64,000 nucleotides of DNA, taken from assembly GCA_028288965.1 (NCBI GenBank), contig JAQGHD010000008.1, positions 22,390-86,389 of the forward strand. The letters run 5' to 3'. The notes beneath the pieces are model-generated. The model made no database searches. It was not told the DNA's origin and was given only the letters and a program-made list of their open reading frames with translations. This DNA is from Candidatus Saccharimonadota bacterium (GTDB taxonomy: Bacteria > Patescibacteriota > Saccharimonadia > Saccharimonadales > JAQGHD01). Below are positions 4,888-58,033 of the stretch, one piece after another (the first letter of the stretch is position 1; each line of letters begins with the position of its first letter). The translations under genes were made by a program, and so were the position numbers.

Positions 4888-6813
4888 ATGAAACATAAAG
4901 CTGAAGATAATGCTCACTTTGATAAAGAGGCCGAGCTGACCGAGAAGGTCGAAAAATTATTGGGCCCCACGCCAGAAAAAGCGCCGGCCAAAAGCATTGC
5001 CATCAATCATATTACCGACGGGGACTCTGCGCCCGGTGCACCGGCCGTTGGTACAGATAGCCCTGAGCCTGCTCCCGCAGCTCAGCCGGTTGAGGTGCCG
5101 CCAAAAGACCAGACCAAAACTGATGAAGATCAAGCTATTGATGACATAGCAGCCAAAGATGCCGATGAGCTGCTGGAGGCCGAGGATAAAGAAAAACAAG
5201 AAGTCGAAAAAGCTTTTGATGGTAAAAAGAAAGATTTCAAGACCAAGCTAAAGGATTTTTTCTCCAACTGGTGGAATAATCCCAAATATCGTTGGGCTAC
5301 CATTGCCGCCCTGGCCTTACTGATAATAACCGTCCTTGGCTTGCCGTGGAGCCGCTACTTTGTTTTGAATACCGCCGGTGTACGCAGTAGTGCGTCGATC
5401 ATAATCCTGGACGATTCAACCAAGCTGCCGCTTAAGAATGTCAGCGTCACCTTTGGCAAGCAAAGCGCTTTAACCGACAGTGATGGTAAGGCTACGCTCA
5501 CGCACCTACGGCTTGGAAGCCAACAAGGCACTATACAAAAGCGGGCCTTTGCTCCGATTAGTAAAAAAGTAATAGTTGGCTGGGGCAGCAATCCGCTGGG
5601 CAATCTGAGCTTGACTCCAGTTGGTGCCCAATACGCTTTTCTAGTAACTGATTGGCTGTCTGGCAAGCCGATTGAGGGAGCCGAGGCCAGCGCCAACGAA
5701 GCTAACGCCTTGTCTGACAAAAACGGCAAGATTCTGCTGACCCTGGATAAAAATGATGCTTCTGATGCAACGGTCAACATCAAAGCCGATACCTATCGAG
5801 ACGAACAGGCGCATATTTCTGCCAGCACTACCGGACAGCAAGCTGTCAAGATGGTGTCGGGTCACAAACACGCTTTTGTATCCAAGCGCTCCGGTAAATA
5901 CGATGTTTATAAAATTGATGCCGATGGTCAGCACGAAGAGGTAGCTTTAGCGGGTACCGGTTTAGAGCGTAATGACATTACTTTAATTGCTAACCCCAAT
6001 GCTAACGTTGCCGCCCTGGTCTCGACTCGTGACAATGTTCGCAACAAAGACGGCTACTTGTTAAGTACCCTAACCATGATCAATTTAGATGATAATCAAA
6101 CCACACGCGTGGTACAGTCCGAGCGCATTCAGTTGGTCAACTGGGTTGGCGATAAACTGGTCTATGCACAGATTGCTGCCAGTGCTAGTGCGGCTAACCC
6201 GCATCGGTACCGCTTGGTGGCCTACGACTACAAAAAGCCTGAGGCCAAGGAACTGGCGGCTAGCAATTACTTCAATGATGTCATGGTACTGGGCGGTAAT
6301 GTTTATTACGCTCCGTCTTCTTCGTACGGAAACATGCCGCACGAGAATTTCTACAAAATTAATACCGATGGCACGGGCAAACAAACAATTTTGGATCAAG
6401 AAGTCTGGAACATCTTTAGGGCTGACTACGACAAACTGGTGCTGTCTATGGATAATGCTTGGTACGAATACAAACTCAACGGCAAACCAACCAAATTAGC
6501 TGGCGAACCGGCCAGTACCCAAAACCGGGTCTACGTCGATAGTCCAGATGGTAAGTACAGTGTCTGGATAGATACTCGCGACGGCAAAGGTGTGCTAATT
6601 CTCTATGACACAAAAAGCAAAACCGAAAAAGTTATTCGCAGCCAAAGCGGTTTGCGTAATCCAATTCACTGGCTAAGTAATAACACCTTGGTTTACCGTA
6701 TTAATACTGATCAAGAAACAGCTGATTACGTCCTTAATATAGATGGCGGCGAGCCGCACAAGATTAAAGATGTGACCAATACCACTGGCATTGATCAGTG
6801 GTATTACTACTAA
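4888..6813 (+). CDS. membrane-anchored protein with CarboxypepD_reg-like and PD40/TolB-like beta-propeller repeats
   Basis: Acidic N-terminus, then one TM (WATIAALALLIITVLGL). Ig-like segment IIILDDSTKLPLKNVSVTFGKQSALTDSDGKATL. PD40-like SPDGKYSVWIDTRDGKGVLILYD. Confidence 0.5.
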   Translation: MKHKAEDNAHFDKEAELTEKVEKLLGPTPEKAPAKSIAINHITDGDSAPGAPAVGTDSPEPAPAAQPVEVPPKDQTKTDEDQAIDDIAAKDADELLEAEDKEKQEVEKAFDGKKKDFKTKLKDFFSNWWNNPKYRWATIAALALLIITVLGLPWSRYFVLNTAGVRSSASIIILDDSTKLPLKNVSVTFGKQSALTDSDGKATLTHLRLGSQQGTIQKRAFAPISKKVIVGWGSNPLGNLSLTPVGAQYAFLVTDWLSGKPIEGAEASANEANALSDKNGKILLTLDKNDASDATVNIKADTYRDEQAHISASTTGQQAVKMVSGHKHAFVSKRSGKYDVYKIDADGQHEEVALAGTGLERNDITLIANPNANVAALVSTRDNVRNKDGYLLSTLTMINLDDNQTTRVVQSERIQLVNWVGDKLVYAQIAASASAANPHRYRLVAYDYKKPEAKELAASNYFNDVMVLGGNVYYAPSSSYGNMPHENFYKINTDGTGKQTILDQEVWNIFRADYDKLVLSMDNAWYEYKLNGKPTKLAGEPASTQNRVYVDSPDGKYSVWIDTRDGKGVLILYDTKSKTEKVIRSQSGLRNPIHWLSNNTLVYRINTDQETADYVLNIDGGEPHKIKDVTNTTGIDQWYYY

Positions 6814-7409: not shown

Positions 7410-8279
7410 ATGGTCAGTATGACTGCATTCCAAAAAACGGTTTGGGAATATTACGGCGCGCATGGTCGAGATTTGCCGTGGCGCCACCCCGAACCAGGGG
7501 GCAACTTTGAGGCATATAAAATAATAGTGAGCGAGATCATGCTCCAGCAAACGCAAGTCAGTAGGGTTGTCCCAAAATATCACCAATTCTTGGAGCGCTT
7601 TCCAAATGTCGGCACACTAGCTCGAGCCACGCTTGGCGATGTATTAAAAGTCTGGAGCGGCTTGGGCTACAACCGGCGAGCCAAGTTTTTGCACATGGCA
7701 GCTAAAAGTTTAGCCACCATGCCAGAGCCATGGCCCGCCGAAGAACTGATTAAATTGCCGGGTATTGGCAAAAACACTGCTGGCGCGGTCACGGTTTATG
7801 CCTACAATCAACCAGCGGTGTTTGTAGAAACAAACATCCGCACCGTGTTCATCCATCATTTTTTTAAGGACTATCCTCAAGTGAGTGATTCGCAAATACT
7901 TGAATATGTGCTCAAAACCTTGCCACTACAAGAAGAGCAGCCCGGGCAGCGGATTCATTCCGCTCTGGGCGCGATGAAAAACCCGCCCGGGGTTTCTGGC
8001 TACCGGGAGTGGTACTGGGCGCTGATGGACTACGGGGCTTACCTTAAGGCAACCGTTGGCACGTATAGCCAGGTGGCCAAAGCATTTACTAAGCAATCGA
8101 GTTTTGTTGGATCCAAGCGGCAACTACGCGGCCAAGTAATTAAACTATTAACCGAGCAAGCTATCGACACCACTCGTCTCGTAGAGCTATTACCAGACAC
8201 TCGTCTCCAACAAGTACTGGCCGAGCTGGAGGCCGAAGGGTTTGTCAGGCGCAAAAACCAGCAGTATAGCCTCACGTAG
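7410..8279 (+). CDS. HhH-GPD DNA glycosylase, MutY-like, lacking the Fe-S cluster cysteines
   Basis: SEIMLQQTQV, helix-hairpin-helix LPGIGKNTAGAV, VETNIRTV, catalytic-Asp block WALMDYGA. No Cys in the region where MutY/Nth carry C-x6-C-x2-C-x5-C. Confidence 0.7.
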   Translation: MVSMTAFQKTVWEYYGAHGRDLPWRHPEPGGNFEAYKIIVSEIMLQQTQVSRVVPKYHQFLERFPNVGTLARATLGDVLKVWSGLGYNRRAKFLHMAAKSLATMPEPWPAEELIKLPGIGKNTAGAVTVYAYNQPAVFVETNIRTVFIHHFFKDYPQVSDSQILEYVLKTLPLQEEQPGQRIHSALGAMKNPPGVSGYREWYWALMDYGAYLKATVGTYSQVAKAFTKQSSFVGSKRQLRGQVIKLLTEQAIDTTRLVELLPDTRLQQVLAELEAEGFVRRKNQQYSLT

Positions 8280-9624: not shown

Positions 9625-10482
9625 TTACAGATCTAGACTATGACTGGAGAGCTTGGCCTCAATTTTGTGGGTGGCTAAAGATTTGTTAAGTAATCTATAA
9701 AACTCGCTGCGCACTTTATATTGGTTGCTTGGCGAAGTTTGACCAATAATTTTGACCGTAATGCCATCATTGCTATACCCTTTGATACTGACTAGTTTAG
9801 GTGCCTGCTTAATTTTATGGGCCAGCTCTGGTTTGGCGGCTAACTCTTGGCCCACGTGATTAATAATGTGCTCTAGCTGCACAAGGTCGGTCTCGACCGG
9901 CACGGTCAGGTCTTCGTTTAGACTTGTGTAGCCGGAAGTTTTGTTGGTGGTGAGTTGGATAGTGCCATTCGGCACATGATGCACATACCCGTCCAGATCT
10001 CGGAGCACTGTGGTACGAATTGTAATAGACTCCACCACGCCACTGACGTTCCCAAGCTGGACAATGTCACCCACGCGGTATTGGTTCTCGGTAATTATAA
10101 AAATGCCGCTGACAAAATCTTTTATAAGACTCTGCGCGCCAAAACCTAGCGCCACTCCTAGAACGCCGGCACTGGCCAGCAGCGGGGCGGTGTTAATACC
10201 AAGTTCACCCACGATCATAATAGTAGCCACCAACCACACCACCACGCGTACCGTAGCGTTCACCAGACTACTCAGTGTCTTGATGCGTTTTTTGCGGTCC
10301 AGTTCGGTGGGGAACATGTCGCCCCGAATGGTTTGCCTGATAAGGCCATTAATAACCGTTGAGCCAAAGGTTCGCAGTACGTAGGCGCCCAGTACAATAA
10401 CGATCACATTAAATAAATGTTTATCGGCCCAATCGCTTAGTAAATGGCCTACATGTGTCAAGTTAGCGTCAAGCCCACCCAT
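9625..10482 (-). CDS. mscS: small-conductance mechanosensitive channel (MscS family)
   Basis: TM3/beta-domain block GALGFGAQSLIKDFVSGIFIITENQYRVGDIVQLGNVSGVVESITIRTTVLRDLDG..HHVPNG. Confidence 0.8.
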   Translation of the reverse strand: MGGLDANLTHVGHLLSDWADKHLFNVIVIVLGAYVLRTFGSTVINGLIRQTIRGDMFPTELDRKKRIKTLSSLVNATVRVVVWLVATIMIVGELGINTAPLLASAGVLGVALGFGAQSLIKDFVSGIFIITENQYRVGDIVQLGNVSGVVESITIRTTVLRDLDGYVHHVPNGTIQLTTNKTSGYTSLNEDLTVPVETDLVQLEHIINHVGQELAAKPELAHKIKQAPKLVSIKGYSNDGITVKIIGQTSPSNQYKVRSEFYRLLNKSLATHKIEAKLSSHSLDL

Positions 10483-12774: not shown

Positions 12775-14085
12775 CTAGTGATTGTCTTTTTTACTGCTAA
12801 AGTGATTGCGTATCCACTCGTCTAAACTGTCGCCACCACCACCGGCTATGGCCACCACCATATCGCCCTTGTCTAAATGCTGGTGAATGAGCTGGAGCAG
12901 GGCTTCATTGCGCTCACGGGGCTCGGCAATAGTTGGATCACTGAGGTGACTAATTAATTCCTCTGGTGGGATGATGCGGTCAGCCGGATCTTCGCGCGCC
13001 AGATAACTGGGGAGCCAGTAAACTTTGGCGGCACCAGCCAAGCAGTCTTGGTAGTCGTTCATCATGTGGTGTTGGCGACGGTTGGTCAATGGCTCGTACA
13101 CCACCACCACGTTTTTTTGTTGGCGAGCGGCCATTTCTAGCGCCACACTCATCGCCCCGCGAATTTTCTCAGGCGTGTGGGCATAATCGGTGTACAGGCC
13201 GGGCACAATTTCTTCCATTCTACGTTGCAAACCAGGAAATAGGTTCATATGCGCGGCCAGATCGTCAACTGGCTCACCAGTCAGCTTGTGAACCCCCTGG
13301 ATGGCTAGCCAGGCATCCAAACGGTTATACAGCCCAAACAGTGCTAATTTTTCTATCTCGTGCTCACTGGGGTCCAGCGTAGTTACACGGCTATCTTCTG
13401 GCAGGTGTAGGTAATCAAGATCATCTTGCCACAAAATGGCCGAAGAACTTTGCTTAATGAATTCCTTAAAAGCTTCTTGATAATCCTCTCTAGTGGGAAA
13501 AATCTCGTGATGATCCCAGCTTACCCCGCTAATCAGGCTCAGGTGTGGAGTAAACGCCAGAAAATTACGGTCAAATTCATCGCACTCGTACACAAAATAC
13601 TCAGAATCCTCTTGGTACTGGCCCATCTCGCCGTAAGAGATCTTGGCTCCCACCGAGTAGCTGATTGGCTGGCCAAGCTGCTTAAACAGCCAAACTACCA
13701 TGGCGGTGGTAGTAGTTTTTCCGTGTGTCCCGGCAATAGCCAACAATTTGAGTTTTTTATCACTCAAAATTTGATTCAATAATTCATCACGCTTGCTGGT
13801 TTTTATATCTTGATCATGGGCAAACACCAACTCTTCGTGATTGGGGTTCTCTAGGGGCAGAGCCGAGGAGTAGACCAGCCAATCAATTGGACGAATGTCG
13901 TGTAAGGCAGCGATTTGCTCCCTGGTCTGGCCAATATGAATATTGTTAATGCTGTGCTGACGAAGATATTGCACGTACTGCGAATCTTGCTTATCGGACC
14001 CGCTCACTTCATAGCCAGCTTGTTTGGCAATCAGCGCCAGCGGCCCAATAGCCGTTCCCCCAATGCCACTAAAGTAAATATGCAT
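12775..14085 (-). CDS. Mur ligase family protein (MurC/Mpl-like)
   Basis: N-terminal Rossmann IYFSGIGGTAIGPLALIAKQAGYEVSGSD, P-loop AGTHGKTTTTAM. Confidence 0.75.
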   Translation of the reverse strand: MHIYFSGIGGTAIGPLALIAKQAGYEVSGSDKQDSQYVQYLRQHSINNIHIGQTREQIAALHDIRPIDWLVYSSALPLENPNHEELVFAHDQDIKTSKRDELLNQILSDKKLKLLAIAGTHGKTTTTAMVVWLFKQLGQPISYSVGAKISYGEMGQYQEDSEYFVYECDEFDRNFLAFTPHLSLISGVSWDHHEIFPTREDYQEAFKEFIKQSSSAILWQDDLDYLHLPEDSRVTTLDPSEHEIEKLALFGLYNRLDAWLAIQGVHKLTGEPVDDLAAHMNLFPGLQRRMEEIVPGLYTDYAHTPEKIRGAMSVALEMAARQQKNVVVVYEPLTNRRQHHMMNDYQDCLAGAAKVYWLPSYLAREDPADRIIPPEELISHLSDPTIAEPRERNEALLQLIHQHLDKGDMVVAIAGGGGDSLDEWIRNHFSSKKDNH

Positions 14086-14227
14086 AACACCAGTATAAGG
14101 TGTAATCCATTCAGACTAAAGCATGAGCTGACCTTGGGTATTTTCACTCGAAAAATCTCAGGCGTGTAACGCACTTGAGAGGGAAAGTACCCAAGGTCTA
14201 CTGGCCTGCCGTATAATCAAAAGCAAG

Positions 14228-30363: not shown

Positions 30364-30981
30364 TTATTGTTTAATGTTATTGAGTACAGTCCTAATGTTT
30401 GCAAGGGTTTGTGTCTCTTGAGCGTCACCATTAGATTTTGCTGAACAGCTTGCTCCTGGTTCGGCTGGAGCAATGTAATAGTAATCACCTATTAGTGCGG
30501 GTTTGATATTATGAACCGTTTTATCACTAGACGTCATTACCGAGTCATATATTTCTTTGAATGTGGATGTTTCAGTGCCGGGCGCAGGATAAGTATCGGT
30601 AGCTTTGCCTCTTGCCACTTGTACTGAATTCGTTGTGCATGATGGCAAGAGGGTATCTAACTGCTTTGTTCTAAAAGAGGCAACGCTATTATTTAGAGTG
30701 TAGTAGAGGTCTGTCGTATTAGCATCCAAGGGTACTTGAACACCCCATTCTTTAACTGTCAGTGATTTTTGAGTAGTGGTCATAGATTGAGGGGAAGAGG
30801 ATGTCGGCGTTTTAGTGACTTTTTGAGGGGTACTTGCTCCTTGAGAAGTGTTATTGAGGGTTTTGTTGGTATCTTTCTGAGATTTATAGACATACCACCC
30901 AACAAAACCAATCACCCCAACGATTATTAGAATGAGTAAGGCTTCGACTGCCGAAAAGCCTTTACTATTTAACTTTTTCAT
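30364..30981 (-). CDS. type IV pilin-like protein (prepilin N-terminus)
   Basis: MKKLNSKG|FSAVEALLILIIVGVIGFVGWYVY: class III signal with G|F cleavage site and Glu+5. Confidence 0.75.
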   Translation of the reverse strand: MKKLNSKGFSAVEALLILIIVGVIGFVGWYVYKSQKDTNKTLNNTSQGASTPQKVTKTPTSSSPQSMTTTQKSLTVKEWGVQVPLDANTTDLYYTLNNSVASFRTKQLDTLLPSCTTNSVQVARGKATDTYPAPGTETSTFKEIYDSVMTSSDKTVHNIKPALIGDYYYIAPAEPGASCSAKSNGDAQETQTLANIRTVLNNIKQ

Positions 30982-31005
30982 AAAGATTCCTTGATTATTA
31001 GCTTA

Positions 31006-31034
31006 AGCATAATTGAAGCCTGATAACTTTGCAA
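31006..31034 (-). promoter_or_regulatory. pilin promoter (TTGCAA-N17-TATGCT)
   Basis: Minus-strand TTGCAA (31034-31029), 17-nt spacer, TATGCT (31011-31006), followed by the conserved TAAGC. Confidence 0.55.
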
Positions 31035-31056
31035 TTTGACCAAGTGATAGTGGAAC

Positions 31057-31743
31057 CTAGTTGATTGTTAGTGAGTCAAAAGCTTTAGTAAATGTTGTCC
31101 AATAATCTGCAGCGGCCTTAACATTTAGTTCTTCATTTACACTCCCGAATGAATAGGTTTTGTTGCCAATGGCAAATAGATACAGCTTTGAGTCTATGCC
31201 AGAGTTGGTGACAGCATACTGGGTTGATGATTTGCCCTTCAGTTTATTAGTTGTTTTGGTGACCTTATTCAGAGAAGATTGAGCATAATAACCATCATAA
31301 AACGATGTTGCTGTGGCCAGCTTTTCATCCAGGACCTCCACAACCACTGTATTGCTATATTTAGCACCACCTACAAGTTTCAGGCCTGTGCCAAATTGTT
31401 GCCTTGTTGCGCTACCGTTAGTCTCTGCTGCACTGCTTGAGACTTCGTCACTGGTTGTCCAGGTCGTTGGATATTTATAACTAAAGCCATACGTAGAGTT
31501 TGTGTACGTTTTCCAGCCGGCATACACGTCGACAGCTGGTGTTGTGGCTGCTGGTTTAGTAGCGGCACTTGGCTTGGTTGTTGTCGCATTTTGGTTATTT
31601 GCGACATTGTTGTATGAAGTATTGGTTTTGTTTCTTGATTGATATACATACCAGCCCACAAAACCAATGACCCCAACAGTTGTCGCGATTAATAAGCCTT
31701 CGACAGCACTAAAACCCGTTTGATTTTTGTTTAATTTGTCCAT
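31057..31743 (-). CDS. type IV pilin-like protein
   Basis: MDKLNKNQTG|FSAVEGLLIATTVGVIGFVGWYVY. The C-domain is paralogous to 23878-24651. Confidence 0.75.
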   Translation of the reverse strand: MDKLNKNQTGFSAVEGLLIATTVGVIGFVGWYVYQSRNKTNTSYNNVANNQNATTTKPSAATKPAATTPAVDVYAGWKTYTNSTYGFSYKYPTTWTTSDEVSSSAAETNGSATRQQFGTGLKLVGGAKYSNTVVVEVLDEKLATATSFYDGYYAQSSLNKVTKTTNKLKGKSSTQYAVTNSGIDSKLYLFAIGNKTYSFGSVNEELNVKAAADYWTTFTKAFDSLTIN

Positions 31744-31777
31744 TCTGAACGATTCCTTAGATTAAGTAATTATTTTA

Positions 31778-31806
31778 AGCATAAGCGTGGCTAGAGTAAA
31801 TTGCAA
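31778..31806 (-). promoter_or_regulatory. pilin promoter (TTGCAA-N17-TATGCT)
   Basis: Minus-strand TTGCAA (31806-31801), 17-nt spacer, TATGCT (31783-31778). Confidence 0.55.
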
Positions 31807-31833
31807 TAAAAATGACCTCCGGTGAAGGAGGTC
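31807..31833 (-). terminator. intrinsic terminator following repeat copy E4
   Basis: Minus-strand GACCTCC-ttcacc-GGAGGTC followed by ATTTTTA, abutting the -35 of the next promoter. Confidence 0.65.
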
Positions 31834-31845
31834 AAATATGCTTGA

Positions 31846-31918
31846 TAGCCCTGGTACATTCGAACTGGAACGTACTTCCTGGGGAGCTATCTCGTTGGCT
31901 AGAAATATCTAGAGGCAA
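31846..31918 (-). repeat. island repeat copy E4 (core plus 5' extension)
   Basis: tagccctggtacattcgaactggaac ... tctagaggcaa. The extension contains hairpin CTAGA-tatt-TCTAG (minus sense). Confidence 0.7.
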
Positions 31919-31955
31919 GTCAAAAGTAAGCTACTCTACCGGGCGGTAGTGGAAC

Positions 31956-32648
31956 CTAAATTACCTTAACTGTCTTAACAACTTGCTCGATTGTATCACT
32001 GACATTTTCTGCGCCAGACTGTACGGTGTAGCCAAATGTTAGTCTTGAGGCGCCTAATTGCACGCAGTACCCGTAAAACTTATCTCCCTTGACAAGACTT
32101 TGAGCGCCTGTATTAGTAGCAACATCACCGGATTCGACATCTGTATACACATCATTTCCACTGTCAGTTTTAAGAGCTAGTTTGTAGGCTGGTAACTCTG
32201 AACATTTGCCTGTATTTGATGAAGCGGCACCGTAGTCCATAAAGAAGCCGTATGTAAATTCACCCGGACCCGAATACGTTGAGTATTCTTTAACAACTGC
32301 CTTCTGACCAGCTTTGTACTTTATGTCGTCATTCTTGGCAAAAAAGCTATCATTGCTTTCCTGCTTTTTAGTAATCGTCCAGCCGTCAGCAAATCGAATT
32401 GAATAGTGAGGGGCCTTGTATTCCAGCCAACTATCAGACACTTTCTTTTCTGGTGCAGCCGTTTTGGTCTCGCTCTTTTTTGTCGATGTTTGAGAACTGA
32501 TTGTTGATTGTGATGCGTTGCTAAGGCTTTTGTTTGCGTCCTTATTTGATTTATATACATACCAGCCCACAAAACCAATTATGCCCACTATGACTAGGAT
32601 TAATAGCCCCTCAACTGCCGAGAAGCCCCTAGAATTTAACTTTTTCAT
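31956..32648 (-). CDS. type IV pilin-like protein
   Basis: MKKLNSRG|FSAVEGLLILVIVGIIGFVGWYVY. Confidence 0.75.
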   Translation of the reverse strand: MKKLNSRGFSAVEGLLILVIVGIIGFVGWYVYKSNKDANKSLSNASQSTISSQTSTKKSETKTAAPEKKVSDSWLEYKAPHYSIRFADGWTITKKQESNDSFFAKNDDIKYKAGQKAVVKEYSTYSGPGEFTYGFFMDYGAASSNTGKCSELPAYKLALKTDSGNDVYTDVESGDVATNTGAQSLVKGDKFYGYCVQLGASRLTFGYTVQSGAENVSDTIEQVVKTVKVI

Positions 32649-32671
32649 TTAAGTTCCTTTAAGTTAGCTTA

Positions 32672-32700
32672 AGCATAAGCGAAAAATAATCCCAAAGCAA
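32672..32700 (-). promoter_or_regulatory. pilin promoter (TTGCTT-N17-TATGCT)
   Basis: Minus-strand TTGCTT (32700-32695), 17-nt spacer, TATGCT (32677-32672). Confidence 0.5.
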
Positions 32701-32701
32701 T

Positions 32702-32727
32702 AAAAAAGACCCCTTGCAAAAGAGGTT
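32702..32727 (-). terminator. intrinsic terminator following repeat copy E5
   Basis: Minus-strand ACCTCTT-ttgc-AAGGGGT followed by CTTTTTTA. Confidence 0.6.
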
Positions 32728-32739
32728 GAATAGACTTGG

Positions 32740-32817
32740 TAGCCCAAATACATTCGAATTGGAACTTAATGCTTGCGGAGTTAAGCCGCTGGATGCAATC
32801 ATCTGGAGAGGCAACAG
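32740..32817 (-). repeat. island repeat copy E5 (full length, ~78 nt)
   Basis: Aligns over its full length with E6. Contains hairpin GATG-attg-CATC (minus sense) and the core ending GGGCTACCAAG. Confidence 0.75.
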
Positions 32818-32970
32818 TGTAGTCTTTATTCTTCCAATGTAATCGGTATGGCACTACTTTTTTCTTGTTGACACTGTAGTACATGACCACCGGTACTTCT
32901 TTGTTGATTTTCTCTCGTATAAAATTACTCCTTGTTGACTAACTTACAAACTTAGAATTTAATATGCCTT

Positions 32971-33309
32971 ATGGATATATTGAAACCTATGCAAGAACTT
33001 GAGGCACATTCTGCTCACATTGGAGCCATAGCTGATGCTGTTATTGCTGAAATAAATGCTGCTAGCAAAGATGAGCTACAAGCTCAAGTCGATGCGGTAC
33101 CTAATATAGGCAATGCGGCAAGTCACTTGGTTGATTACTACGCAGACGGTCTAGAGCCATTAAGCGATGAAGAACAGGGGCTCTGGAAAGATGCATTTAT
33201 GATTGGTTTACTTACTCGGCATTTATTATCTACAGAAGAAGTTCCAGTTCCCCCACCTGTACTAGGTTCGCCCCCTGAGCTACCTGACTTTTACGGTGAA
33301 GTCAACTAG
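32971..33309 (+). CDS. hypothetical acidic protein (112 aa)
   Basis: The only plus-strand ORF in the island; bracketed by repeat copies E5 and E6. Confidence 0.4.
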   Translation: MDILKPMQELEAHSAHIGAIADAVIAEINAASKDELQAQVDAVPNIGNAASHLVDYYADGLEPLSDEEQGLWKDAFMIGLLTRHLLSTEEVPVPPPVLGSPPELPDFYGEVN

Positions 33310-33374
33310 TATTCAGCCCACTTTACAGATTGATGTACATTGAAAAAGACTCCGAAGAGCCCTCTAAATCTTTG

Positions 33375-33451
33375 TAGCCCAAGTACATTCGAGTTGGAAC
33401 CTACTCTCGGCGGAGTTAAATCGCTGGATGCAATCATCTAGAGAGGCAACA
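33375..33451 (-). repeat. island repeat copy E6 (full length, ~77 nt)
   Basis: tagcccaagtacattcgagttggaac...ggatgcaatcatctagagaggcaaca. Lies ~45 nt after the stop of pilin 33494-34138. Confidence 0.75.
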
Positions 33452-33493
33452 GCGCTTTATTGCATGTGTTTCGCAGGACGTAATATTAATTAT

Positions 33494-34138
33494 CTATAAA
33501 GCCACAAAGCTGCTTGTGAGTGCTCCTACTGCATCCTTAGTTTGTTTCACAAGTGCCGACGAAGAACAATCAGATTGACCACTCCAGTAAATGTAATAGT
33601 AGTTGCCAACCTTTGAGTAGCTAGGGGGTGTGCTATTGCCAGCTTTGAAGTCCTGGCTAAGAAAAGCTTGAGCTGTTACTTCACCTCCTTCAGCAGGGAT
33701 TTTATCTGTTGGCAAGTAGCGTCCAATGTAGCCCCCACCAGCGTTTTGGGTATCTGACGCACCACTTCTCCCGATTCCGCAATAAGGGTCACTTACCGCT
33801 GTAAGCTGCGTTGAGGTAAAGTACGCATTGTTGGTTGGGTATGGTTTTGTGCCAATGGCATATCGAAGTGTCAAAGTTCCATCATATGGTGCTTTTACTC
33901 CCCATTCTTTTACCTCAAAATACTTAGTTGTTGGTTTTGCGGCAGTCTCAGATGCTGCCGAAGTTGATTTCTTTGTGGTACTTGCAGCTTGGTTTGTCGC
34001 AGCTGCGTTGTTGTAGCTGGTTGTTGTCTTTTTATTACTATTCCAAACATACCAGCCGATAAAACCAATGACGCTGACAATAACCAAAATTAATAAGCCT
34101 TCAACTGCGCTGAAGCCTTTTTGATTTATTTTTTTCAT
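33494..34138 (-). CDS. type IV pilin-like protein
   Basis: MKKINQKG|FSAVEGLLILVIVSVIGFIGWYVW. Start at 34138, because the predicted -10 (34169-34164) lies inside the longer ORF. Confidence 0.75.
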   Translation of the reverse strand: MKKINQKGFSAVEGLLILVIVSVIGFIGWYVWNSNKKTTTSYNNAAATNQAASTTKKSTSAASETAAKPTTKYFEVKEWGVKAPYDGTLTLRYAIGTKPYPTNNAYFTSTQLTAVSDPYCGIGRSGASDTQNAGGGYIGRYLPTDKIPAEGGEVTAQAFLSQDFKAGNSTPPSYSKVGNYYYIYWSGQSDCSSSALVKQTKDAVGALTSSFVAL

Positions 34139-34163
34139 AGAATCCTTGCTTAAATTTAGCTTA

Positions 34164-34192
34164 AGCATAATAGATGTTTAGTCGGGTTGCAA
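34164..34192 (-). promoter_or_regulatory. pilin promoter (TTGCAA-N17-TATGCT)
   Basis: Minus-strand TTGCAA (34192-34187), 17-nt spacer, TATGCT (34169-34164). Confidence 0.55.
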
Positions 34193-40095: not shown

Positions 40096-40377
40096 TTATC
40101 GTCCGCCACCAAAGTCGCGGCGAGGTCGATCCTCACGAGGACGTGCTTCGTTAACCGTAATAGTACGGCCACCAAGATCACTGTTGTTTAGAGCTTGTTC
40201 AGCTGCCTTGCCTTCGTCATCGCTTTCGAATTCGACAAAGCCAAAACCTTTGCTGCGACCGCTGTCGCGGTCCTTGATAACCGTAGCGCTAGCTACAGTA
40301 CCGTGTTGAGCAAAGAGCTGCTGGAGCTCATCGTCGGTGGTGCTAAAGGGCAAGCCACCTACAAATAACTTGTACAT
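40096..40377 (-). CDS. RRM-type RNA-binding protein with RGG-like tail
   Basis: RNP2 KLFVGGL, RNP1 KGFGFVEF. Start at ATG 40377 (AAGGAA upstream) rather than TTG 40434. Confidence 0.85.
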   Translation of the reverse strand: MYKLFVGGLPFSTTDDELQQLFAQHGTVASATVIKDRDSGRSKGFGFVEFESDDEGKAAEQALNNSDLGGRTITVNEARPREDRPRRDFGGGR

Positions 40378-40567
40378 GTATGTAATTTCCTTGATTACTT
40401 GTCTCAGGTACGACCTACTTACTGGCTTGGACAAAGACTCGAACTGACCCGAAAACCTTGAATCAAGGGGTGTCTATCGAACTTTCTCGTGTTAAGAACA
40501 GTGAAGATTCCTGCCGCGGTATTTAACTATAAAACGCTCACGAAAGCAAGCTATTTATATATACTTA

Positions 40568-40957: not shown

Positions 40958-41010
40958 CAGTTTTCCAAACCAAGGAGTCGACTTGTTCGACTCGACTGTT
41001 TGGAAAACTG
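40958..41010 (+). other. long bipartite hairpin upstream of tRNA-Met
   Basis: Perfect 13-bp outer stem CAGTTTTCCAAAC / GTTTGGAAAACTG enclosing a 7-bp inner stem GAGTCGA-cttgt-TCGACTC. Confidence 0.4.
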
Positions 41011-41080: not shown

Positions 41081-41157
41081 GGCAGGGTAGCTCAGTTGGT
41101 TAGAGCACAGGACTCATAAGCCTGGGGTCGCGAGTTCAAATCTCGCCCCTGCTACCA
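41081..41157 (+). tRNA. tRNA-Met (CAU), elongator type
   Basis: 77 nt: GGCAGGG-TA-GCTCAGTTGGTTAGAGC-A-CAGGA-CTCATAA-GCCTG-GGGTC-GCGAG-TTCAAAT-CTCGC-CCCTGCT-A-CCA. The D-arm and variable loop match E. coli elongator tRNA-Met as I recall it. Confidence 0.8.
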
Positions 41158-42924: not shown

Positions 42925-44793
42925 ATGGATAGGAAACCATTTCGAGGTAAAGCACCAAAGAGTGATAAAGGGCGTAGAGGCTTTAAAAACATTGGCTTCG
43001 TAGCGCTGCTTATATTAATTGGACTGATTGTTTTTGCGTCCTTGAGTCAGCCCAGTAATTTAAAAGACATTCCGTTTTCTCAGGTTATCGAACGCGCCAA
43101 TAGCGGCACCATAAAAGAGATTGATATTTCTGGCAATGATTTGACGGTTACTGAAAAAGGCCAAGATAAACCCACTGAAAAATCCCATAAAGAACCTGGC
43201 TCCAGTATCTATGAGCAGGGGCTTAAGAATCGTGACGTGGTGGTCAATGTAAAACCAGGATCAAGTGCTGGCAGCACCTGGGCCAATATAGGGATTTCTA
43301 TTTTGCCGGTGCTGGTCATTAGCCTAGTACTGTTCTTTATGCTGAGGAGCGCCCAAGGTCAGGGTAACCAAGCCCTGAGTTTTGGTAAGAGCCGAGCCCG
43401 ACTCTACGGCAACGAACGCGAGAAAGTCACTTTTGCTGAAGTTGCTGGGAGTGATGAAGCTAAGCAGGACCTCCAAGAAGTTGTCGAGTTTTTGAAGTAC
43501 CCCAAAAAGTTTGAATCGGTCGGGGCCAAAATTCCTAAAGGTGTATTGCTAGTAGGCCCGCCAGGTACCGGTAAAACTATGTTAGCCCGCGCTGTGGCTG
43601 GCGAAGCCAATGCGCCGTTCTTTAGTATTTCTGGTAGTGAGTTTGTGGAAATGTTTGTCGGTGTGGGGGCCAGCCGGGTTCGTGATTTATTTGCCAAAGC
43701 CAAAAAGAATGCCCCGTGCATTATCTTTATAGATGAAATTGATGCTGTGGGACGCCGCCGTGGTAGTGGTATGGGTGGTGGCCACGACGAGCGTGAGCAA
43801 ACCCTGAACCAAATTTTGGTAGAAATGGACGGTTTTGAGCAAGGCACCAATGTCATAGTACTAGCGGCCACCAACCGCGCCGATGTGCTAGATCCGGCTC
43901 TGCTGCGCCCAGGCCGTTTTGACCGCCGGGTAAACATCGACCTGCCAGACCGCAAGGACCGTGAAGCTATACTTAAGGTGCACTTTGCCAAGAAGCCGCT
44001 GGCCAAGAACGTAGACCTTGATGCCTTAGCGGCCAAGAGCGCCGGTTCGGCCGGTGCCGATCTGGCTAACATCGCCAACGAGGCCGCTATTATTGCCGCT
44101 CGCCACAACCGCCGCGAAATCTCCCAAGAAGATGTCACTCAAGCGTTTGAAAAAGTGGCCATTGGACCAGAGCGCCGCAGCAAAATTATGAGTGACAAAG
44201 AAAAAGAAATCACCGCTTATCACGAAGCTGGGCACGCCCTGGTGGGACACGTTTTGCCGGACAGTGATGTGGTGCACAAGGTGACAATTATTCCGCGTGG
44301 TGGCACCGGCGGCGTTACCTGGTTTATTCCCCCAGAAGATAAAAGTTACCACAGCGTCATTGAGTACAAGGACGTACTAGCCCGTATGCTGGGTGGCCGT
44401 ATTGCCGAGGAAGTAATGTTCGGTGCAGACCGAGTGACCACTGGTGCTGGCAATGACTTGCAAAAAGCTGCTGAGCTGGCTCGCGATATGGTTATGAACC
44501 AAGGCATGGGCCAAAAGCTACGTGACCAAGTTTTCCAAGTAGATGAGGGCATGATGCTCGAGCGCCTGGTGCACGAGCGCACCTACAGTGACGAAACAGC
44601 CAAGATCATTGATGACGAAGTCGAGAATCTAATTACCGAAGCTGCCAAACGCGCCAAGTTGGTCATCAGGTCAAACCTGGATAAATTAGAAGCGCTTAAG
44701 AAACGCTTGTTAGAGAAAGAAACCATCGAAGCTGCCGAGGCCAATGAGCTACTCAAAGGCTCAATCATGCCCAAAGCCGCAGCATTATACTAA
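42925..44793 (+). CDS. ftsH: ATP-dependent zinc metalloprotease FtsH
   Basis: Two N-terminal TMs, Walker A GPPGTGKT, Walker [18 protein letters not shown] zinc site. Confidence 0.95.
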
Positions 44794-44828
44794 CCAGCAA
44801 AATATGGTGCCACGCCGTCTACCTAAGT

Positions 44829-45025
44829 AATTGCCCGGCAATTCAGATAGATGCCATGAAAACACTATGGCTCCCTAGGCTGGTCTTTACCGCGCCGGCA
44901 GAACGCAAGCGGTTTCGCTCCAAAAATTAAAGGAGGAGCGAAACACACTGCCGCCTTTATTCGGTAAATCCCAGCCTGAGTCGCCTCGGTTTTCCTGAGT
45001 CTATCTGAATTGCCGGGCAATTTTT
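44829..45025 (+). ncRNA. ~197-nt rod-like structured element (6S-RNA-like candidate; alternative: MITE)
   Basis: Perfect 23-bp terminal inverted repeat (44829-44851 / 45000-45022). Internal pairings 44877-83/44971-77, 44886-92/44962-68, 44896-901/44948-53, 44912-21/44935-44. Unpaired 25-nt and 22-nt segments face each other like a central bubble. T-run after the 3' arm. No ORF. Confidence 0.4.
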
Positions 45026-45088
45026 AAGTAGTAAAGATGGGTGATTTAAAGGGCGGTTTTGCAGCCGGTAGTTTATAATTACTGCTTA

Positions 45089-46681
45089 ATGGATCGCTTC
45101 ATAAAACGCGCTAATACTCGAATTTCACTTGGTGGCGCGGCAGCTCTACTTATATCAACCTCTATGTTCGGGCAGATCCTGGGGTTTTTACGTATCAAGT
45201 TGGTGAATGCTAACTTTTCAGCCCTGGGGCCACAGAGCACCGACGCTTATTTTGCGGCCTTTAAAATTCCTGATTTCTTTTTCTTTACTCTAGCAGCCGG
45301 AGCCTTAGGTGTGGCCTTTATGCCGATTTTGTCGGATCACATTCATAGAGGTGATAGAAAAGGCGTCTGGGATCTGACCTCTAGCCTGATGAATCTCTTG
45401 ACTATTATTATGGCGGGCGTAGCCGTCATTATTTTGATTTTTGCGCCGCAACTGCTGCACTACATTGTGGCCCCAAAATTGACTCCCGAGCAATTGCATA
45501 ACGCCGCCAGCATTATGCGGCTGATTGCTCTTAATCCTTTGCTCTTTACGCTATCGGGCATTTTAGTCAGTGTGCAACAAACATACGGGCGGTTCTTTTT
45601 TTATGCCATAGCCCCACTGTTTTATAACGCTTCAATCATTATGAGCATCTTTGTCTTCAAAAATAACTGGGGACTGATTGGTCTTGGGCTGGGTGCCTTG
45701 ATTGGTGCCCTGCTGCAACTGACAATTGCATTCTTAGGCATTGCCGGCATGGGCTTTAAATATTGGCCAAAAATTAATTGGCGTAGTAGTGACTTCCGAC
45801 TGATATTAAAGCAACTACCGCCTCGATCAGTGGATCAAGGAATTGATTCTATTAACAGTATTGTGGAGACCAACTTTGCCCGTCGGCTGGGGGAGGGAAA
45901 TATCAGTTTTTACGAAAATGCCTATATGCTGCACACAGCGCCAATTCTGCTTATTGGTACCAGTGTGTCCACGGCAGCCTTTCCGCGCCTAACGGCCAGA
46001 TTGTCCCAAAACAGGCCGGACTTATTTCGTAAAGAATTCTTACAGGTGCTGCGGGCTATGGTTTGGATCATTATGCCGGTGGTGGTCATCAGCTACTTTG
46101 CCCGTGGTTATTTGGCGCGTTTGATTTTTGCTAAAGATGCACCAGAAATTGCTCTGATTTTTGGCTACCTCACAGGTGCCATATTTTTTAGGACCATTTA
46201 CGCCATTATCTCGCGTTATTTTTATGCCCATAAAGATACCAAAACGCCATTGTTTGTATCACTGTTTGCAATTGGACTGAATATTCTACTGGCTTGGCGA
46301 TTGTCCCGTTCCACCTCGTACGGGGTGGCGGGCTTGGCGCTAGCGGAATCCTTCGTGGCTTTAGGCGAAGTGGTTATACTATCGCTCGTAATGGTCGTCC
46401 GCGATCCCAAGCTACTGGATAAAACCTTTTGGGGTGGCATTGTCAGGATCTTATCGGTCACCGGCTTTAGCGTCCTGGCCGCCTTTATTATGGTTTCTAT
46501 CTTGCCGCTCAATATTGCTGATCGCGGCTTTGTAACACTTGGTACTAAGCTGACGCTCATAGCGGGGGTTACTATTTTGGTTCATGTAAGTATCTCGTAC
46601 TTATTTGATCTAGAAGAGGCTCGGCCAATCATTGATAAACTCAAGCGAATTATTCTTCGGCCTATTAAGGTTCAGTTGTAA
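45089..46681 (+). CDS. murJ: lipid II flippase MurJ (MviN)
   Basis: About 14 TM. N-terminal FGQILGFLRIKLVNANFSALGPQSTDAYFAAFKIPDFFF is typical of MurJ. Confidence 0.85.
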   Translation: MDRFIKRANTRISLGGAAALLISTSMFGQILGFLRIKLVNANFSALGPQSTDAYFAAFKIPDFFFFTLAAGALGVAFMPILSDHIHRGDRKGVWDLTSSLMNLLTIIMAGVAVIILIFAPQLLHYIVAPKLTPEQLHNAASIMRLIALNPLLFTLSGILVSVQQTYGRFFFYAIAPLFYNASIIMSIFVFKNNWGLIGLGLGALIGALLQLTIAFLGIAGMGFKYWPKINWRSSDFRLILKQLPPRSVDQGIDSINSIVETNFARRLGEGNISFYENAYMLHTAPILLIGTSVSTAAFPRLTARLSQNRPDLFRKEFLQVLRAMVWIIMPVVVISYFARGYLARLIFAKDAPEIALIFGYLTGAIFFRTIYAIISRYFYAHKDTKTPLFVSLFAIGLNILLAWRLSRSTSYGVAGLALAESFVALGEVVILSLVMVVRDPKLLDKTFWGGIVRILSVTGFSVLAAFIMVSILPLNIADRGFVTLGTKLTLIAGVTILVHVSISYLFDLEEARPIIDKLKRIILRPIKVQL

Positions 46682-46740: not shown

Positions 46741-47052
46741 ATGAGGAAAAACCAAGCCGGGTTCAGTGTTGTAGAAGGACTACTGGTGCTGATTATTATT
46801 GCCATTATTGGGTTTATTGGTTGGTATGTACTTAAGGCCAAAAACAAAACCACCACGAGTTATAACAATACCAATTCCAGCACATCTGCCGTAGCCTCTA
46901 AAGCTACCTCGTCGAGCGCTACAGATAACACAAGTTTGGATAAAGATTTATCAGATGCCAACGGCAGCCTAACCCAGGGCAACCAGAACCTGAGTTCGGC
47001 AGATGCGTCCCTAAACGATCAGAGCCGTCAAGTAACGGTACCAACGGAGTAA
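46741..47052 (+). CDS. short type IV pilin-like protein
   Basis: MRKNQAG|FSVVEGLLVLIIIAIIGFIGWYV followed by an S/T/N-rich tail. Confidence 0.7.
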   Translation: MRKNQAGFSVVEGLLVLIIIAIIGFIGWYVLKAKNKTTTSYNNTNSSTSAVASKATSSSATDNTSLDKDLSDANGSLTQGNQNLSSADASLNDQSRQVTVPTE

Positions 47053-56902: not shown

Positions 56903-58033
56903 ATGGCTAAACGAGATTATTACGACGTACTAGGTGTAGGCAAGTCTGCCAGTGCGGATGAGATTAAAAAATCTTTCCGCCGTTTGGCTGTGCAGTACCA
57001 TCCTGACAAAGAGGGTGGCAACGAAGATAAATTCAAAGAGATAAACGAAGCCTACGAAGTGCTCAAGGATGAAAGCAAGCGTAAACGCTATGATCAATTT
57101 GGCCACGCCGGTGTTGGCAGTAGTGCGGCCAGTGATGGTGGCAATCCGTATGCCGGGTTTGGTGGTTTTGGTGGCGCTGGCGGCCAAGGCCAGCGAGTCA
57201 ATTTTGATTTTGGCGATTTAGGCTTAGGTGATATTTTTGAAAGCTTTTTTAGTGGCGGCATGGGCGGTCAAGCTAATGGACAGCAAAGACAGGCTCGCGG
57301 GCGTGATGTAGAAACGGCCATTGAACTCACCTTTGAACAAGCCGTGTTCGGTACCAAAATAGACCTGCGACTTAACTTAGAAGATACCTGCGAGCACTGC
57401 AAGGGTACAACTGTAGAACCAGGCTATGAGCTTAAAACCTGCCCCAACTGTAAAGGCAGTGGCCAGGTGGTAAACGTTATGCGCACCGTATTTGGTAACA
57501 TCCAGCAAGCGGCCGTCTGTCCTGTTTGTAAGGGCCGCGGCAAAGTGCCAGAAAAAGTCTGCACTGTTTGTAAGGGCAAAGGCACGCAGCGTAAGGAGCA
57601 AGACATTACGCTAAAAGTACCAGCCGGTATAGACGATGGTGCTACTATCCGTTTACGAGAACATGGCGAGGCCGTGGCCAATGGCCCCAAAGGTGATTTG
57701 TACGTGAATGTGCGCGTCAAACCGCACAAAAAATTCACCCGTGAGGGTGATCTGATCTTGAGTGACGATACGGTGGGAATGGTAGAAGCGGCCCTAGGCG
57801 CCGAAATAGAAGTTGAGACCGTAGATGGCCCAGTAAAAATGAAAGTGCCGGCCGGTACTCAAAGCGGCACCGACTTTAAGCTATCGGGCCACGGCGTGCC
57901 GCACCTGCGCGGTAACACGCGCGGTGCCCACATTGTGACTATTAATGTAGAGACACCCACAAAACTGACTAAGCACCAACAACAGCTATTGCAAGACTTT
58001 CAGAACCAGCCAAAAAAGCACGGGCTGTTTTAA
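56903..58033 (+). CDS. dnaJ: molecular chaperone DnaJ (type I Hsp40)
   Basis: J-domain DYYDVLGV...YHPDK, G/F region, four CxxCxGxG zinc-finger repeats. Confidence 0.95.
   Translation: MAKRDYYDVLGVGKSASADEIKKSFRRLAVQYHPDKEGGNEDKFKEINEAYEVLKDESKRKRYDQFGHAGVGSSAASDGGNPYAGFGGFGGAGGQGQRVNFDFGDLGLGDIFESFFSGGMGGQANGQQRQARGRDVETAIELTFEQAVFGTKIDLRLNLEDTCEHCKGTTVEPGYELKTCPNCKGSGQVVNVMRTVFGNIQQAAVCPVCKGRGKVPEKVCTVCKGKGTQRKEQDITLKVPAGIDDGATIRLREHGEAVANGPKGDLYVNVRVKPHKKFTREGDLILSDDTVGMVEAALGAEIEVETVDGPVKMKVPAGTQSGTDFKLSGHGVPHLRGNTRGAHIVTINVETPTKLTKHQQQLLQDFQNQPKKHGLF

Follow-up and report, generated by a model that had tools for sequence, protein, structure and literature searches.

The ftsH-murJ spacer of the 64-kb window (the whole stretch of DNA that was analysed) harbours a 194-nt imperfect palindrome, which on balance probably represents an orphan, lineage-specific foldback insertion of the REPIN/MITE-like kind, possibly serving also as a terminator after ftsH. 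The element is new in sequence, no relative being present in the collections searched, and it is ordinary in kind.

Structure of the element

The features of the region, in coordinates of the window, are as follows.

ftsH: 42925..44793, plus strand, 622 aa, Pfam Peptidase_M41, AAA and FtsH_ext
Left flank: 44819..44828, contains CTACCTAA (44819-26), whose pairing partner is the right flank
Left terminal arm: 44829..44851, no strand, 23 nt, perfect inverted repeat
Nested 15-nt palindrome of the left arm: 44829..44843, AATTGCCCGGCAATT
Degenerate 5' internal segment: 44852..44876, 25 nt, with a local hairpin GCCAT..ATGGC and partial pairing with 44978-44999
Inner rod: 44877..44977, helices 44877-92/44962-77, ~44896-901/44948-53 and 44912-21/44935-44
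Degenerate 3' internal segment: 44978..44999, 22 nt, holds a small terminator-like hairpin, CTGAGTCGCCTCGG, then TTTTCC
Right terminal arm: 45000..45022, no strand, 23 nt, perfect inverted repeat
Nested 15-nt palindrome of the right arm: 45008..45022, AATTGCCGGGCAATT
Right flank: 45023..45031, end of the T5 run (45021-25), then TTAAGTAG (45024-31)
TATAAT box: 45074..45079, plus strand, 9 nt ahead of the murJ ATG
murJ: 45089..46681, plus strand, 530 aa from ATG 45089, assigned by Pfam, identical to MDB5163634.1

The Pfam assignments agree with the flanking genes, ftsH and murJ, named in the first-pass annotation, and the structural core of that annotation was reproduced as well. The arms AATTGCCCGGCAATTCAGATAGA (44829-44851) and TCTATCTGAATTGCCGGGCAATT (45000-45022) are 100% complementary over 23 bp and close the 194-nt palindrome; a 23-nt arm match was never obtained from the shuffled window (expected by chance, 0), and a scan of the 64 kb allowing up to three mismatches returned the two arms as the sole matches. 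The palindrome reported within each arm was likewise found in both: AATTGCCSGGCAATT is present once per arm, with a centre-to-centre distance of 179 bp. In the window as a whole it has five matches against 2.2 expected and is not over-represented beyond chance, nor is its 11-nt core.

Inside the arms, the segment 44877-44892 (AGGCTGG..TTTACCG) pairs with 44962-44977, followed by the helix CGGCAG/CTGCCG (~44896-901/44948-53) and by a 10-bp helix of GTTTCGCTCC (44912-21) with GGAGCGAAAC (44935-44), which carries an A-rich apical loop of 13 nt, AAAAATTAAAGGA (44922-34). These inner helices and the loop, described earlier, were recovered in both the inverted-repeat and the fold results. The facing stretches of 25 and 22 nt, which had been regarded as the unpaired sides of an open bubble, turned out to be degenerate complements, partly paired in the MFE as well as in the centroid structure. 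The two halves of the element align end to end, with indels, and the interior beside the perfect 23-bp end block is ~70% paired, also with indels. As CTACCTAA and TTAAGTAG pair at 7 of 8 bp, the pairing runs on into the flanks and the palindrome therefore extends over approximately 44819-45031.

The RNA MFE of the plus strand is -99.0 kcal/mol (z -10.8) and that of the minus strand -110.4 kcal/mol (z -11.9), while the folding z of the element as ssDNA is -9.4. Among 2552 sliding 200-nt windows covering the 64 kb, the element is the top structure outlier (z -6.2); the runner-up (57051-57250, z -3.75) lies inside the dnaJ ORF (56903-58033). A DNA-level palindrome is favoured over an RNA gene: both strands fold, G·U pairs are distributed symmetrically (3 versus 4, no strand bias) and the arms align over the full length. 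The earlier statement that neither strand carries an ORF has to be corrected, for a mechanical 51-aa ORF starting with TTG exists on the minus strand (44865-45020); it has no Pfam match, and the element is non-coding.

The second-strongest local inverted repeat of the window is a hairpin at 40958-41010, with 24-nt arms (83% complementary) and a 5-nt loop. Its neighbours are the gene of an RRM-domain protein (40096-40434, minus strand) on one side and a tRNA (41081-41154) on the other, and it may be a bidirectional terminator.

The ftsH-murJ spacer in related lineages

Comparative analysis was performed on 1.34 Mb of DNA, comprising the murJ neighbourhoods of the closest relatives in public assemblies and of 80 GTDB species representatives. 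In 67 non-redundant Saccharimonadales lineages the genes stand in the order tilS-ftsH-murJ; the ftsH-murJ spacer has a median of 82 nt and measures at most 130 nt in 48 of them. The window spacer measures 295 nt and consists of ~98 nt plus the element, with 35 nt from the ftsH stop to the element and 52 nt from the element to the conserved TATAAT box of murJ. At this orthologous site the element is found only here: it is absent from all 66 other lineages with the ftsH-murJ order, both from the spacer and from the surrounding 1.34 Mb, and no similar sequence is present in the closest relatives (MurJ identity of 84%, 77% and 74%). Since the element is absent from these 66 lineages and the spacer is 295 nt long against a median of 82 nt, it is an insertion relative to every sampled relative, the comparison being one between lineages (next-best MurJ 84% identical) rather than with a strain-level empty site.

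Of 47 short spacers, ~36 have a TATAAT/TATACT box 7-9 nt upstream of the murJ start codon. The conserved position of this box indicates that murJ has its own promoter, from which a leaderless or near-leaderless mRNA appears to be made. The arrangement of the TATAAT at 45074-79 and the ATG at 45089 is kept; hence TTG 45059, the start of murJ in the ORF list, was rejected and ATG 45089 taken as the true start. The element leaves both the conserved box and the start codon of murJ intact. It sits in the sole dispensable stretch of an ancestrally short spacer, the one place that can take up an insertion without damage.

The length and content of the ftsH-murJ spacer vary among lineages, the spacer reaching 0.6-6 kb at some loci and exceeding 1 kb in five lineages. 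The closest relative (84% MurJ identity) carries an 874-nt insert in it (L002:3222-4095, also in L001 and L003) with two small ORFs of 125 aa (plus strand) and 121 aa (minus strand), neither of which belongs to a Pfam family, and another relative has an insert of 426 nt (L009:9575-10000). As for the wider surroundings of murJ in the window, the gene is followed closely by a small pilin-like ORF (46741-47052) in which an N_methyl motif is present, and four paralogous ORFs of 205-230 aa on the minus strand (30364-34168) have a common prepilin-like N-terminus, KGFSAVEGLLILVIVG, and give no match in Pfam at E<=1e-6.

Search for further copies and for mobility functions

The element is short and non-coding, with terminal inverted repeats that are perfect over 23 bp on 194 nt, as is expected of a MITE. 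Further copies, the search for which had been proposed as a check of this interpretation, were found neither in the window nor in the public collections searched. Nhmmer and blastn detected none in the 64 kb, which make up ~6% of the ~1-Mb genome; the exact 22-nt arm is unmatched in the GTDB species representatives, the JGI metagenomes and IMG/VR; phage and plasmid collections, queried by blastn at low stringency, gave no match, and nothing similar to the element occurs in the 1.34 Mb of relatives' DNA. A parent transposon with matching ends was found neither in the window nor in the GTDB representatives, the JGI metagenomes or IMG/VR. Among the ~63 ORFs of the window, Pfam recognised no transposase, recombinase or Y1 domain, and the neighbours of the element are housekeeping genes. 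The literature search on MITEs or RAYTs in Saccharibacteria/Patescibacteria likewise yielded nothing relevant.

A looser pattern, two 13-nt palindromes at the right spacing, retrieved a single contig from the metagenomes, L088 (JGI Ga0105047_10440707). It was rejected as unrelated, having 60% GC and only the 13-nt palindrome in common with the element. This contig contains three copies of CATTGCCSGGCAATG followed by GGGTGTTTACATGC-like sequence (L088:443-640), as well as a fragment of an IS-type helix-turn-helix transposase.

The element is bordered by a direct repeat, TAAGT(A), at 44824-44829 on the left, one base into the element, and at 45025-30 on the right. As a candidate duplication it reaches p ~0.015-0.05, is offset by 2-3 nt on the right and lies in flanks that are mutually complementary. 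Because the flanks are palindromic themselves, they can yield such a repeat without transposition; TAAGT(A), statistically weak and confounded in this way, was not accepted as a target-site duplication.

Rods in related genomes

Elements of the same build, some of them multi-copy, exist in related genomes. A scan of all fetched DNA for long-stemmed palindromes (hereafter rods) revealed ~16 distinct ones, each unique in sequence. Relatives have rods of 108-176 nt with terminal repeats of 15-26 bp, unrelated in sequence to the window element. Rods occupy the ftsH-murJ spacer in four lineages: the window itself, L025, L041 and L089/L017. The last of these has three tandem rods in the spacer, one of which separates the murJ promoter box from the start codon. 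The located rods are listed below.

L025: 9746-9863, rod of 118 nt with 23-bp arms, ftsH-murJ spacer
L041: 4898-5063, rod of 166 nt, ftsH-murJ spacer
L089: 4584-4956, 7946-8474, 13418-14140 and 16002-16177, rod regions, same sequence as L017/L090/L091

L089 is a 163-kb JGI contig (3300021976, Ga0193742_1000006), the MurJ of which is 68% identical to that of the window; within 20 kb it bears at least eight rods (108-176 nt, terminal repeats of 16-26 bp). Three of its copies form a family, designated S1, with the ends CTTAGAACCCATCCAGGATC: 7946-8115, which adjoins the ftsH stop codon, 13418-13479, which is short, and 13967-14140. The full copies have in common ~21-nt ends, lengths of 170 and 174 nt and their geometry, and differ in their interiors; two-sided changes preserve 16 of the 47 base pairs of the consensus fold. 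The combination of conserved ends with interiors that diverge and yet pair through compensatory change is the signature of a REPIN/MITE.

Six of the ~16 rods lie in the ftsH-murJ spacer, which makes up 1.9% of the sampled DNA, the sampling being centred on murJ; compared with intergenic DNA only, the enrichment is marginal at best and no strong claim is made of it. The occurrence of exactly 23-bp perfect arms in four rods was dismissed as a coincidence, as the arms range from 15 to 27 once a single mismatch is allowed. Three contigs with identical MurJ, considered as a source of population variation in L017/L089, are the same in sequence and differ in gene calls only, and L041 and L046, at 75-80% DNA identity, are uninformative as a close pair.

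Several other repeats were encountered in the same DNA. L018:9708-10032 resembles a rod within a rod (the nested one at 9747-9913), and a 34-nt internal stretch is common to an L018 rod and an L089 rod (E ~7e-6). In L041, a 15-nt inverted motif, TATAGCCCCCGCAAA, forms a short hairpin at the borders of hrcA-grpE-dnaK (10126-10145 / 13856-13872) and is similar to the L018 rod's terminal repeat; the occurrence of this repeat in inverted orientation 3.7 kb apart was considered as a possible parent transposon and rejected, the interval being the hrcA-grpE-dnaK operon. CIRCE-like repeats (TGGCACTC...GCTAA) are situated upstream of hrcA and dnaK in L089 (14772-14805, 16754-16787). L039:8689-9034 is another, unrelated long-stem palindrome. 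The two arms of a 16-nt inverted repeat at L051:5162-5265 belong to a tRNA-Met gene (5238-5314) and to an incomplete, inverted copy of it further upstream; the repeat may be a remnant of integration or rearrangement.

Comparison with known repeat families

REPINs are hairpin-forming REP doublets mobilised by RAYT Y1 transposases (Bertels & Rainey 2011, PMC3116915). They are imperfect palindromes with conserved inverted ends, each with a nested palindrome, and with a spacer constrained in length and in hairpin capacity (PMC3116915); the nested architecture, in which each conserved end has its own palindrome, is also described in the RAREFAN preprint (bioRxiv 10.1101/2022.05.22.493013). The window element matches this architecture: it is extragenic, its interior is less conserved yet hairpin-forming, and an alternative 'clover' fold is possible for it. 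The S1 family of L089 likewise combines conserved ends with compensatory changes. However, the element is ~194 nt long, compared with ~100 nt for a REPIN, and a single copy is seen in the 64 kb and the public collections, compared with tens to hundreds; a RAYT gene is absent from the 64 kb. In the literature searched, no report of a REPIN/RAYT system was found for Saccharibacteria or any other CPR group.

A stretch of 64 kb should contain several copies if their density were that of REPs, and REP hairpins have a conserved 5' GTAG head adjacent to them. In the window only the two arms match, even at 2-3 mismatches. Symmetrically placed on either side of the element are CTAC (44819-22) and GTAG (45028-31), 5-6 nt off the nested palindromes instead of abutting them.

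Bacterial MITEs and long palindromic intergenic repeats include ERIC/IRU, Correia/NEMIS, RUP, Bacillus bcr1 and Rickettsia RPE. With these the element shares a size of 100-400 bp, non-coding and intergenic character, terminal inverted repeats and a rod fold; like them, it is missing from the corresponding position in relatives, and it could provide a neighbouring gene with a terminator or processing site. Unlike in the case of typical MITEs, other copies, an unambiguous target-site duplication, an insertion sequence with the same ends and database similarity were all not found. The MITE interpretation offered by the first-pass annotation thus stands as regards the insertion, the terminal inverted repeats, the lack of coding capacity and the multi-copy analogues in relatives, whereas a second copy, a clean target-site duplication and a parent transposase were not found. 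Taken together, the insertion, the terminal repeats, the non-coding nature and the analogous multi-copy rods support an element of the mobile kind, and a MITE is the best-supported, albeit unproven, kind.

Alternative explanations

The likeliest of the alternatives, though itself unlikely, is a lineage-specific structured RNA that is selected for its fold and is not mobile, either a giant cis-acting terminator of tilS-ftsH, a 3'-UTR stabiliser, an RNase III site or a 3'-UTR-derived small RNA. The extreme fold of the plus strand, which makes the element the top outlier of the 64 kb, would suit such an RNA, as would the T5 that, read in the direction of ftsH, follows the 3' arm. Canonical terminators are mostly lacking behind ftsH in relatives, this spacer has gained different large hairpins in separate lineages, and the pairing of the S1 family has been kept through compensatory changes. 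However, the 48 lineages with short spacers do without such a hairpin, the antisense strand folds better with no G·U strand bias, and a promoter of its own is not predicted. T-runs do not regularly follow the rods of relatives, one of which lies within the murJ leader. A perfect 23-bp block beside a degraded interior, moreover, better fits recognition ends than a uniformly selected stem.

Rather unlikely, too, is a palindrome that arose at its present site without ever having moved, for instance through template-switch replication or inverted duplication followed by expansion of a small hairpin. This origin would agree with the single copy in everything searched, with pairing that continues into the flanks with no sharp boundary, and with the failure to find a clear target-site duplication or a transposase. 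On the other hand, the arms resemble no neighbouring or orthologous sequence, a perfect 23-bp end with a nested palindrome beside a ~70%-paired, indel-bearing interior is not what such a process predicts, and genuine multi-copy families built in this way occur in relatives.

A device acting at the DNA level, either a pair of operators through which a dimeric protein loops the DNA upstream of murJ, or a segment invertible by a recombinase whose sites would be the 23-bp inverted repeats, seems very improbable. Each arm does offer a 15-bp dyad-symmetric site typical of dimeric helix-turn-helix proteins, the element is located just upstream of the murJ promoter, and the arms are perfectly conserved against a decayed interior. 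Nevertheless, the occurrence of the palindrome elsewhere in the window does not go beyond chance, a promoter inside the segment is not predicted, that of murJ lies outside the repeats, neither a recombinase nor an adjacent regulator gene is encoded in the window, and relatives miss the element altogether. A pair of terminators or protein-binding sites had been the third interpretation of the first-pass annotation; the nested palindromes on which it relied are real, yet neither operators nor an inverton account for the self-complementarity of the whole 194 nt.

The 6S RNA interpretation, also 6S-like in the sense of an RNA that sequesters RNA polymerase, is to be abandoned as hardly credible: the element is not 6S RNA, decisively because it is not conserved among the 66 related lineages, the lack of conservation of the spacer having been named in the first-pass annotation itself as a result that would count against its proposal. 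The likeness to 6S RNA (RF00013 and related models) consists in the length of ~197 nt and in the scheme of long closing stem, internal loops and apical stem. The Rfam check proposed along with it matched no family in 44700-45150, 6S models included, neither at the gathering threshold nor at E<=10 with relaxed filters; over the window, only three tRNAs were matched, all of them elsewhere, and the element, as far as these models tell, resembles no described RNA family. There is no robust open bubble, its two sides partly pairing, no strand asymmetry, the minus strand folding even slightly better, and no predicted sigma-70-like promoter on either strand. Nor are closing duplexes of 23 perfect base pairs typical of 6S RNA. 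Nothing relevant on 6S RNA in Saccharibacteria/Patescibacteria was found in the literature.

Proposed origin and function

According to the favoured explanation, a foldback insertion of the MITE/REPIN-like type, a non-autonomous hairpin-shaped element would have arrived in the ftsH-murJ spacer by transposition. A transposase of the DDE or Y1/RAYT type, either encoded elsewhere and acting in trans or since lost, would have recognised the element by its 23-nt ends with the dyad-symmetric core, while the decayed interior would be constrained mainly to remain hairpin-forming.

Once in place, the element would presumably form the 3' end of the tilS-ftsH transcript, where a hairpin of about -99 kcal/mol with U5 might act as a terminator, insulator or 3'-end stabiliser, ending or pausing read-through into murJ and shielding the 3' end of ftsH. 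Such an effect on read-through and on the ftsH 3' end would be the probable outcome, because the element would be transcribed together with ftsH, and the perfect 23-bp duplex makes it a plausible target of RNase III. A canonical hairpin with a T-run follows ftsH in only 3 of 47 short spacers; since terminators are so rare at this position, the hairpin and T5 of the element would add a function and not duplicate an existing one. The TTTTT noted earlier behind the 3' arm is indeed present on the plus strand (45021-45025). Two of these T's belong to the stem, whose base is rich in A/U, and pairing can continue into the flanks. Because of the short T-run and the A/U-rich stem base, terminator activity of the element is no more than plausible; the consensus terminator scanner called only the small internal hairpin at 44976-89.

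Implications

The analysis removes a 6S RNA annotation and explains an oversized spacer as an insertion. Genomes of CPR bacteria, Saccharibacteria among them, are usually seen as streamlined and poor in mobile DNA. At least eight hairpins in 20 kb of one relative, with a family of REPIN-like compensatory evolution among them, together with rods that four lineages bear independently behind ftsH, suggest an overlooked class of small replicators. Such rods could mislead screens for ncRNA, act as strain markers and change the transcriptional coupling of the essential genes ftsH and murJ.

A wider and still doubtful interpretation, for which less than an even chance is to be claimed by far, is that Saccharimonadales, a CPR lineage whose genomes measure ~1 Mb, may harbour populations of REPIN-like foldback rods, conserved at the ends and divergent inside, that recurrently colonise safe intergenic slots such as the ftsH-murJ spacer, their hairpins being kept by compensatory change. 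Literature on REPIN-like rods in Saccharimonadales, including a compensatory multi-copy family, was not found. If rod populations of this sort do exist, the window element would be the orphan or the founder of a previously undescribed family, and the rods would be units of selection at the level of ssDNA or RNA and not simple junk.
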